Source: Escherichia phage ECO103 4-12-1. Taken from it: DNA of 64,000 nt. Below, piece by piece: positions 32,197-33,791 of the stretch; position 1 is the stretch's first letter, and the number at the start of each line of letters is the position of its first letter. The position numbers and the translations under genes were made by a program. The notes under the pieces were generated by a model. The model saw only the letters and a program-made list of their open reading frames with translations. It was not told the origin of the DNA and searched no databases. The stretch is taken from sequence record OR844650. One strand, given 5' to 3'.

Positions 32197-32389
32197 GAAC
32201 ACGCTCACAATTAAGGCAATAAATGCACTCAATGTCAGGTCGCCATGATTTATCAAAATCTTTGTGTTGTTCTTCGGTGTATTCCGCATCATCATTAATA
32301 GGGAAGAAATCACCAGCACCAGTCGCCCAGTCTGAATCTAAACGGAAACGAGCTAATTGAGTACTGTTACAATATGGACATTTATTCAA
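32189..32389 (-). CDS. zinc-ribbon small protein
   Basis: CPYC ... CIYCLNC cysteine pairs; 66 aa. Confidence 0.5.
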   Translation of the reverse strand: MNKCPYCNSTQLARFRLDSDWATGAGDFFPINDDAEYTEEQHKDFDKSWRPDIECIYCLNCERVHD

Positions 32390-32666
32390 AATTTATTCCT
32401 TCTAACTGATATACGTTTAATGAAAATGACCCACTATTATTATCGCATCTGAAACACAGTGTTAAAGAACCATTAAAACTAACTACATCCGTACAGATAC
32501 ATTTTTCACCATTGGATATGATAGATTTTCCTATATATAAATCTCTTACTATAGTACGGTAATGTTGCCATAAAAAATAATACACACTTTCATAGTACTC
32601 ATCTTTTACATATGATAAGTATAAGAATTTATAAAATACTTGTATTTCCTTTAAGTTGTTTTTCAT
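32382..32666 (-). CDS. tandem paralog family C member 1
   Basis: N-terminal LKEIQVFYKFLYLSY; C-terminal FNGSLTLCF. Confidence 0.5.
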   Translation of the reverse strand: MKNNLKEIQVFYKFLYLSYVKDEYYESVYYFLWQHYRTIVRDLYIGKSIISNGEKCICTDVVSFNGSLTLCFRCDNNSGSFSLNVYQLEGINFE

Positions 32667-32940
32667 TCTCCAACTCCAGTAAATTTACACCAATCCAATC
32701 AACATCACTATCAGTACTTAATTCCAATCGTAGCTTACCGCTATGACTAACAATATCGCGGAATTTGTATATTTTATTATCACGAACTATACACAAATCA
32801 TGGTAATATTCATGTAATTCATCCAAAAACTTTATCCATACCGAACGATAGATTTCACTGTAGAGATATTCTCCAGCATCAACCGTAGCGTATTGGATAT
32901 ACAAAAATTTGTATGTGAATTGTATATCATTTAATAACAT
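32629..32940 (-). CDS. tandem paralog family C member 2
   Basis: N-terminal LNDIQFTYKFLYIQY; C-terminal HSGKLRLEL. Confidence 0.5.
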   Translation of the reverse strand: MLLNDIQFTYKFLYIQYATVDAGEYLYSEIYRSVWIKFLDELHEYYHDLCIVRDNKIYKFRDIVSHSGKLRLELSTDSDVDWIGVNLLELENEKQLKGNTSIL

Positions 32941-32950
32941 ATGTAACCTC

Positions 32951-33262
32951 TTATAAATTCACCAACTTCACAACTTTAATCTCGATAAATCCCCTATCGG
33001 TTATTTCCTGAAATTGAACATGGATTATACCATTATATGATTGCACACCATAGAAATCGAATTTATCATTTCCATCGATAAAAGTACTGTAATTCTTTTT
33101 TATATATTCACCTACTGAATCTAAGTACTCAATATATAAATCAATAAATGGTTGTTCTTTGGATCGGTTATGTGAACCTATGTTGTTACTAACAAGGTAT
33201 ACATCATACAAATCATATAGTATCTTATAAGTGAATTGTATATCATTTAAATTTAATCCCAA
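32951..33262 (-). CDS. tandem paralog family C member 3
   Basis: N-terminal LNDIQFTYKILYDLY; C-terminal YNGIIHVQF. Confidence 0.5.
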   Translation of the reverse strand: MGLNLNDIQFTYKILYDLYDVYLVSNNIGSHNRSKEQPFIDLYIEYLDSVGEYIKKNYSTFIDGNDKFDFYGVQSYNGIIHVQFQEITDRGFIEIKVVKLVNL

Positions 33263-33519
33263 GGGAATATCTCCAACGGAATACTGGTAAATCCAAAATC
33301 AGTGTAGTACTGAACCTCAACTTTACCATCACGTCTAATGATTATATCAGAAAATTCTGCATGGTCATCACCAATAATAACAGTACTGAATTTTTTTTTA
33401 ATCTTACCACGAATCGTATGAATCATTTCAGTGCATGTGTCTTCTAGACTAGGGCTATCATTGTCGTGTGCTAAATCTTGAATAATCTTGTATGTTAGTA
33501 GGAAATCTTTATAATTCAT
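33253..33519 (-). CDS. tandem paralog family C member 4
   Basis: N-terminal YKDFLLTYKIIQDL; C-terminal RDGKVEVQY. Confidence 0.5.
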   Translation of the reverse strand: MNYKDFLLTYKIIQDLAHDNDSPSLEDTCTEMIHTIRGKIKKKFSTVIIGDDHAEFSDIIIRRDGKVEVQYYTDFGFTSIPLEIFPWD

Positions 33520-33791
33520 ATGTCCACCAAATCTATACTATATCTTTCATTAGTATTACTATCTATAAATGATAGTACTAATTTACCACCAAAACTATTA
33601 ACTTGTTCTATCTTCTGTTTTTTACCACGAATGATTATCTCACTATTAACAAAATATTCACGTATCATTATTAAGTGATTAATCCAGATAGTATGAGTGA
33701 ATGTGTTTTCTCGTATTGTATTGAGATATCTTCCATTGTGATGTAAATCAAACAAAACACTGTATGTATATTGTAGAACTTTATAATTCAT
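33516..33791 (-). CDS. tandem paralog family C member 5
   Basis: N-terminal YKVLQYTYSVLFDL; C-terminal FGGKLVLSF. Confidence 0.5.
   Translation of the reverse strand: MNYKVLQYTYSVLFDLHHNGRYLNTIRENTFTHTIWINHLIMIREYFVNSEIIIRGKKQKIEQVNSFGGKLVLSFIDSNTNERYSIDLVDI

Follow-up and report, generated by a model that had tools for sequence, protein, structure and literature searches.

A 64,000-nt stretch of the genome of Escherichia phage ECO103 4-12-1 (OR844650), hereafter the window, carries on its minus strand a tandem array of five small open reading frames (ORFs) which are, with near certainty, coding genes and true paralogs of a single protein family. The family comprises at least six and probably seven copies, and the array sits in a hypervariable slot, bounded on one side by a conserved terminator-like hairpin and on the other by a conserved promoter. 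On balance, we favour the view that these are non-structural, intracellular small proteins of an accessory locus, a pattern that host-interaction or anti-defence genes typically show; that the proteins themselves work as host-interaction or anti-defence binders is proposed as a tentative assignment. The five core ORFs are designated A1 to A5 and the further ORFs downstream A6, A7 and A8, whereas phage A4, which also appears below, is a phage; all coordinates are those of the window (Table 1). The window derives from an Asteriusvirus (121Q/PBECO4 type), a jumbo myovirus with a genome of about 350 kb. It is 99.5% identical to Escherichia phage UB, and the 4 kb around the array are 97–99.5% identical to Escherichia phages UB, JP4, slurp01, PBECO4 and 121Q. 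Coding capacity is strongly biased, with 123 ORFs of at least 80 aa on the minus strand against 19 on the plus strand, and the same-strand neighbourhood of the array includes a Dam methylase, a nucleotidyltransferase, an RNA ligase and numerous small ORFs.

The first-pass annotation, made from the letters and their translations, had described five ORFs of 88–103 aa at this place, and all five exist exactly at the positions given there. It had also described them as head-to-tail with overlapping ends; this holds for three junctions, with overlaps of 4, 10 and 38 nt (the longest formed by the C-terminal tail of A4 lying over the start of A5), but not for the remaining one, which is a 10-nt gap. 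A Shine-Dalgarno-like sequence precedes each of the five starts. The TTG start of A3 is identical to that annotated for gene 424 of 121Q, and the long start of A5 retains the LKEIQVFYKFLY motif, the 121Q annotation giving a shorter form of 78 aa. The five proteins are soluble, lacking hydrophobic segments, and four of them are mildly acidic (pI 4.8–5.8).

That these ORFs form a separately expanded family is borne out by several measures of similarity. BLASTP inside the window proteome connects all five (1.5e-6, 6e-6, 2e-4 and 2e-5, the value for A2–A3 being 2e-4), and hidden Markov models (HMMs) built from four members find the omitted fifth in every case, with E-values of 8.6e-11, 7e-15, 8.3e-10, 3.7e-4 (A2) and 7.2e-11. 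Proper pairwise alignment gives significant similarity: Smith-Waterman scores compared with 300 shuffles yield z values of 3.3–12.2 in eight of the ten core pairs, while the A2–A4 and A2–A5 pairs are not significant alone. A2, the most divergent member, reaches z values of 10.6 to A3 and 6.5 to A1. Identity among the paralogs is low, 15–30%; the family goes back to old tandem duplications. The N-terminal motif and the C-terminal glycine pattern pointed out earlier are both present in an alignment of 30 non-redundant members, where conservation is highest at T9, Y10, S65 and G68 (invariant) and next highest at D5, Q7, F8, L13, W35, L39, L70 and F74. The family is also unrelated to the other paralog families of the window: neither the nine proteins of 147–186 aa encoded at 50598–59870 nor the four-member family at 59880–61606 (both on the minus strand) shows any BLASTP relation to A1–A5.

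At the nucleotide level, A3 and A4 are 92% identical over 26 nt of their N-terminal coding parts (32909–32934 and 33225–33250), and A1 and A2 are 70% identical over 54 nt of theirs (33472–33525 and 33744–33797), far above the rest of the paralogs. Either strong constraint combined with the same choice of codons or gene conversion acting locally could account for this.

The structure of A4 was modelled with AlphaFold2 (AF2) at a predicted local distance difference test score (pLDDT) of 86.2 and a predicted template-modelling score of 0.74. The model consists of an N-terminal two-helix hairpin (residues 3–19 and 25–45) packed on a four-stranded beta-meander (residues 50–53, 56–66, 69–75 and 82–86), and it has no whole-fold match in the PDB; the predicted fold is apparently unmatched. 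Searches against Pfam, NCBIfam, PADLOC and PDB sequences returned nothing credible or consistent. In PHROGs the same proteins are found, but spread over five unrelated-looking families (21004, 32291, 35943, 28826 and 33961), all of them of 'unknown function', which are merged here by profile, shuffle and structure evidence. The HMM of PHROG 21004 matches A3 (2.4e-50) and A4 (6e-44), and also A1 (3.5e-5) and A5 (1.6e-4), with no match to A2.

The five ORFs described in the first-pass annotation are thus a real family, but its limit at five does not stand. A7 is a sixth member, as judged from profile similarity and predicted structure. It was repeatedly the best non-member in the leave-one-out HMM searches, and its orthologs match the core HMM at E-values of 1.9e-5 to 4.4e-4. 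A clean A7 profile aligns with the core profile over 75 colinear columns from residue 1 (hhalign probability 84.7%, P 6.7e-6), and Foldseek relates the core model to the BFVD entry A0A1C3S6P8 (E 3.8e-4, TM 0.69/0.74), which by exact look-up is the slurp01 ortholog of A7. Full-length profile similarity and predicted fold therefore both link A7 to the core. The match requires the 96-aa start, which carries the motif IQKTYTLL; the 83-aa start annotated in 121Q does not fit, and PHROG 28826, spanning only residues 14–96, misses the first 13 residues of A7, where the family motif lies. A6 is a probable seventh member on profile and alignment grounds: it aligns with the core at an hhalign probability of 87.7% (P 3.4e-6) over only 44 columns and gives a Smith-Waterman z of 5.4 with A5, and its BFVD entry is absent from the top 50 Foldseek matches of the core model.

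The membership of A8 is doubtful. Its hhalign P against the core is 0.0034 and its sole weak link is a Smith-Waterman z of 4.2 to A6. The AF2 model of A8 (pLDDT 83) has helices at residues 2–20 and 26–45 and strands at 51–57, 60–67 and 72–76, in the same order of elements as in the core; however, a Foldseek search with this model retrieved only its own ortholog and no core member, and we rejected the idea that the whole block is one superfamily. Further away, a 93-aa gene at 30129–30410 on the minus strand, downstream of the conserved 245-aa gene that follows the array, gives a colinear, weak hhalign match to the core (P 0.0013) and one to ORF456 of Klebsiella phage RaK2 (P 3.3e-4), and may encode a still remoter member of the family. 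The observation also takes in the RaK2 locus L012:6059-6343.

Table 1. Features of the array and of its immediate surroundings in the window (aa, length of the product; E, leave-one-out HMM E-value).
Feature	Coordinates	Strand	aa	Description
Terminator-like hairpin	33808..33832	-		GC stem followed by a T-run, directly upstream of A1 (scan)
A1	33516..33791	-	91	Core member; PHROG 32291; E 7.2e-11
A2	33253..33519	-	88	Core member, most divergent of the five; PHROG 35943; E 3.7e-4
A3	32951..33262	-	103	Core member; TTG start, GGAG 8 nt upstream; PHROG 21004
A4	32629..32940	-	103	Core member, protein used for modelling; PHROG 21004; E 7e-15
A5	32382..32666	-	94	Core member; GGAG 7 nt before ATG
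Zinc-ribbon gene	32189..32389	-	66	CxxC...CxxC; PHROG 22354; embedded in the array, non-member, conserved companion
A6	31933..32196	-	87	Probable seventh member, read from an internal ATG; PHROG 33961
A7	31646..31936	-	96	Sixth member; long start with ATGA overlap of the previous stop
58-aa hydrophobic protein	31473..31649	-	58	Two-segment, membrane-like; grand average of hydropathy +0.92; non-member; 121Q gene 430
A8	31208..31486	-	92	Doubtful, very remote relative
Promoter-like site	31190..31217	-		GGGACA-N16-TGATATAAT; between A8, which it follows directly, and the conserved 245-aa gene further downstream

The family is confined to a small group of phages. A profile search of 5.8 billion clusters returned 33 proteins, and scanning 1.84 billion representatives exhaustively with the HMM gave 18, two of which, P0035 (1932 aa) and P0044 (318 aa), were discarded as internally repetitive proteins, leaving about 16 real clusters, all from Asteriusvirus-type phages. 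Nearly all proteins found map onto the Asteriusvirus loci that we retrieved, and tblastn detected the family in 34 phage records, all of Escherichia or Salmonella phages. The genes around the slot follow the order Dam, nucleotidyltransferase, 97-aa, 99-aa and 228-aa genes, slot, 245-aa gene and RnlA; they are syntenic in phages RaK2, GAP32 and Munch, where the contents of the slot are different. The 245-aa gene has a wider range (69 records, including Erwinia, Yersinia and Cronobacter phages). GAP32 and Munch, the only two phages inspected from this wider group, have neither the family nor the zinc-ribbon gene embedded in the array.

In the Klebsiella phage RaK2 (Alcyoneusvirus), the same slot holds ORF452, ORF453, a zinc ribbon 71% identical to that of the window (ORF454), ORF455 and ORF456. 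With the core HMM, ORF453 and ORF456 are found at 7e-6 and 3.5e-6 (hhalign P 1.9e-5 and 3.9e-4), and the 89-aa RaK2 protein H6X4R2 (ORF455 or ORF456) resembles the core model with TM 0.61/0.69. On the other hand, the RaK2 proteins do not keep the N-terminal DIQFTYK motif and go undetected by the whole-database HMM search. We consider these ORFs to be remote syntenic relatives of the family.

Copy number varies among related phages, the question that the first-pass annotation had raised: most Asteriusviruses have five core copies, JNE01 and Turkey5 three. A1-like genes are present three times in phage A4, and JNE01 has one core-type member beyond the zinc ribbon. The ORFs are retained across all relatives. 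The ratio of non-synonymous to synonymous substitutions (dN/dS) is 0.18–0.62 for A1–A5, at dS of 0.3–1.8, and 0.02–0.14 for the flanking 228-aa, zinc-ribbon, 245-aa and 97-aa genes; A1–A5 evolve faster than their flanks, yet under purifying selection. Two marks of an accessory locus, namely a fixed slot with varying content and evolution faster than that of the flanking genes, are therefore found here. Furthermore, sequence identity along the locus is uneven. Against 121Q, the background is close to 100%, and the bins over A3 and A7 fall to 92% and 75%, respectively; against Ecwhy_1, the background is about 80%, and the stretch covering A4, A5 and the zinc ribbon rises to 96–100%. These patches have the size of genes, so that co-circulating phages exchange single cassettes. 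Some Salmonella SD assemblies (L004 SD-6_S16, 3700-3990; L005 SD-1_S14) carry deletions of 118–386 nt in the array, and an in-frame A2/A3 chimera (P0028) occurs in this set. We rejected both as evidence for recombination between paralogs and do not rely on them, because neighbouring conserved genes are also truncated and an artefact of assembly is possible.

One more point of the picture has to be corrected: two genes foreign to the family are interleaved with its members. On the minus strand, the hairpin is followed by A1–A5, the zinc-ribbon gene, A6, A7, the gene of the 58-aa membrane-like protein, A8, the promoter-like site and the 245-aa gene. Since the start and stop codons of the ten genes from A1 to A8 overlap or nearly abut throughout, the block is probably translated by coupling from one polycistronic message. 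The embedded zinc ribbon is 85–100% identical across Asteriusvirus and occurs in 43 phage records, all of Escherichia, Salmonella or Klebsiella phages; in every one of these phages examined in detail it is found together with the family. It forms only 3 clusters in 5.8 billion proteins, and homolog searches with it gave neither a functional anchor nor relatives outside these phages.

Both ends of the slot are conserved. The hairpin stem GCCCGA...TCGGGC is preserved in phages A4 and JNE01, with differences in the loop and flanking bases, and the promoter-like site after A8, of the sigma-70-like extended -10 type, is kept at the same position in all related phages, RaK2 included. The TGATATAAT element of this site occurs 12 times in the window against 3.8 expected, and 7 of its 11 minus-strand copies fall in the few intergenic gaps. 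It is probably, to judge from this placement, the sigma-70-type (early-like) promoter motif of the phage. Examples on the minus strand are found at 31190–31198, 38057–38065, 39763–39771, 52815–52823, 23420–23428, 15716–15724 and 6479–6487, often preceded 16 nt upstream by GGACA or GAGACA. A perfect copy also lies inside A2 (33341–33349, minus strand), with ATGACC 16 nt upstream, only in the 121Q/window lineage. As the promoter of the array, this copy was rejected, being absent from Ecwhy_1, ph0011, phage A4 and JNE01.

Under the reading that we favour, the polycistronic block would be expressed inside the infected cell and its products would be non-enzymatic binders acting on host factors or host defences. 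The patch shared by the paralogs (D-Q-F-T-Y-K of helix 1 plus the S-x-x-G beta-turn) would be structural or would serve as a site for a common partner, and the variable surfaces would supply each paralog with its own target. The early small-ORF regions and the polymorphic internal-protein loci of T4 are hypervariable accessory gene clusters of virulent phages. Such accessory or anti-defence clusters likewise combine a fixed slot between conserved genes, small ORFs of unknown function, contents that change from one close relative to the next, fast evolution and exchange of single genes. The likeness is one of locus pattern only, given that known anti-defence proteins have no sequence or fold relation to the family. 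Literature searches turned up neither a study of the family nor any transcriptome or functional work on an Asteriusvirus.

Several points weigh against this reading. The family has no homolog of known function in Pfam, NCBIfam, PADLOC, PDB or PHROGs. A dN/dS that is raised yet below 1 is explained as readily by relaxed constraint on small proteins as by an arms race, and the strictly conserved polar patch could indicate a shared activity instead of diversified binding. In addition, no promoter was detected between the upstream hairpin and A1. The TGATATAAT copy inside A2 could act as an internal promoter driving A3 and the genes after it; however, it is confined to the 121Q/window lineage and may therefore be due to chance.

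The main rival explanation, which is compatible with the binder reading, makes the paralogs alternative or joint partners of the zinc ribbon in a regulatory complex that might act, for instance, on nucleic acid or transcription; its conserved hub would be the zinc ribbon, with the conserved T-Y/S-x-x-G patch as the docking site. The zinc-ribbon gene lies inside the array in every Asteriusvirus examined, and in RaK2 two family-like genes stand on each side of it. Moreover, it is far more conserved (dN/dS 0–0.05) than the paralogs and has a narrower range than the 245-aa gene, which occurs in more genera (43 against 69 records). This co-occurrence could nevertheless reflect the common ancestry of one block. 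As for the record of phage K64-1, which labels the zinc ribbon TFIIS-like, Pfam gives no match, to TFIIS or any other family, at E-values up to 0.1. We regard this explanation as unlikely. A bolder version appears improbable to us: the zinc ribbon would be a constant hub that docks interchangeable adaptors through the T-Y/S-x-x-G patch across two jumbo-phage genera, the surface of each adaptor recognising a different host factor or defence protein. If true, the phages would encode a cassette-shuffled repertoire of binders built on an undescribed fold. No more credible than the partner explanation, in our opinion, is the idea that the copies are redundant, drifting leftovers of duplication in a recombination-prone region, devoid of individual functions. 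Their dN/dS is 3–6 times that of the flanks, copies have been lost in JNE01 and Turkey5, and deletions occur within the array in several Salmonella-phage assemblies. Against this stand the intactness of all copies and, at dS values reaching 1.8, a dN/dS distinctly under 1; in addition, paralogs as ancient as their 15–30% identity implies each retain the core motif, together with a fold that is predicted with confidence, and the Salmonella deletions carry the doubt stated above.

The remaining alternatives carry much less weight. Some phages package polymorphic sets of small proteins, the internal proteins of T4 being one such set, and the paralogs might in the same way be virion components, either internal or ejected proteins or parts of hair-like fibres. 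However, the orthologs in phage phAPEC6, gp383c-389c, are absent from the 62 virion proteins identified by mass spectrometry (PMC7247149), and the locus lies amid genes of nucleotide and RNA metabolism, not structural genes, which makes a place in the virion very improbable. We attach equally little credence to degenerate nuclease or restriction-enzyme-like domains, at which A2 hints through PADLOC REase_II (E 6.4e-4) and Pfam DUF4928 (E 0.11) and the long form of A6 through Pfam DpnI (E 0.029). These hints do not extend beyond a single cluster of near-identical orthologs, and the family conserves no catalytic motif; a type II restriction endonuclease, in particular, is largely refuted by the inconsistency of the match across the family. 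Finally, the array region has a GC content of only 31% and the paralogs a pairwise identity of only 15–30%, and one may ask whether the resemblance stems from AT-rich composition, or whether the ORFs are genes at all. Shuffle z values up to 12.2, HMM E-values down to 7e-15, purifying substitution, ribosome-binding sites and a confident fold refute this reading, the chance of which we take to be negligible.

The majority of giant-phage genes are without known function, 83% of the gene products in phAPEC6 (PMC7247149), and paralogy is common in such phages. About 10% of the RaK2 proteins are reportedly paralogues of other RaK2 proteins (PMC3622015), and 22 paralogous ORFs have been reported for phage CBB (PMC5259590). 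The array is the usual lineage-specific gene expansion of such phages, better delimited; we judge it to be of the expected kind because paralog expansions have already been noted as common in them, and by itself it changes no current view, expansions of small unknown proteins being expected in these genomes. The RaK2 and CBB papers describe the same kind of expansion but do not define this family, its fold or its zinc-ribbon companion. What the present analysis adds is the merging of five 'unknown' PHROGs into a single family, for which there is now a confident model of the fold, the correction of two gene starts (A5 and A7), and the finding that the family, always beside the same zinc-ribbon gene, occupies a recombining and hypervariable slot which RaK2-type Klebsiella phages share. 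The block is also a defined, deletable candidate for host-range and anti-defence screens, which is relevant as such phages are now developed as therapy against E. coli, Salmonella and Klebsiella.

Two further observations concern the genes beyond the slot. In 121Q and Ecwhy_1, the gene at 35009–35542 (minus strand) bears the label 'ribonucleotide reductase A'; it matches PHROG 3041 at E 3.9e-54, however, and is a cytidylyltransferase-like (HIGH-superfamily) nucleotidyltransferase, and the Ecwhy_1 ortholog QAY00630.1 has been cited as a nucleotidyltransferase (PMC7824862). Between this gene and the Dam methylase (36321–36842), which are adjacent in 121Q, the window carries a 261-aa protein (35539–36324, minus strand) with CapR-homology and DUF723 domains, belonging to PHROG 681 ('endonuclease'), whose gene looks like an insertion of the homing-endonuclease type.

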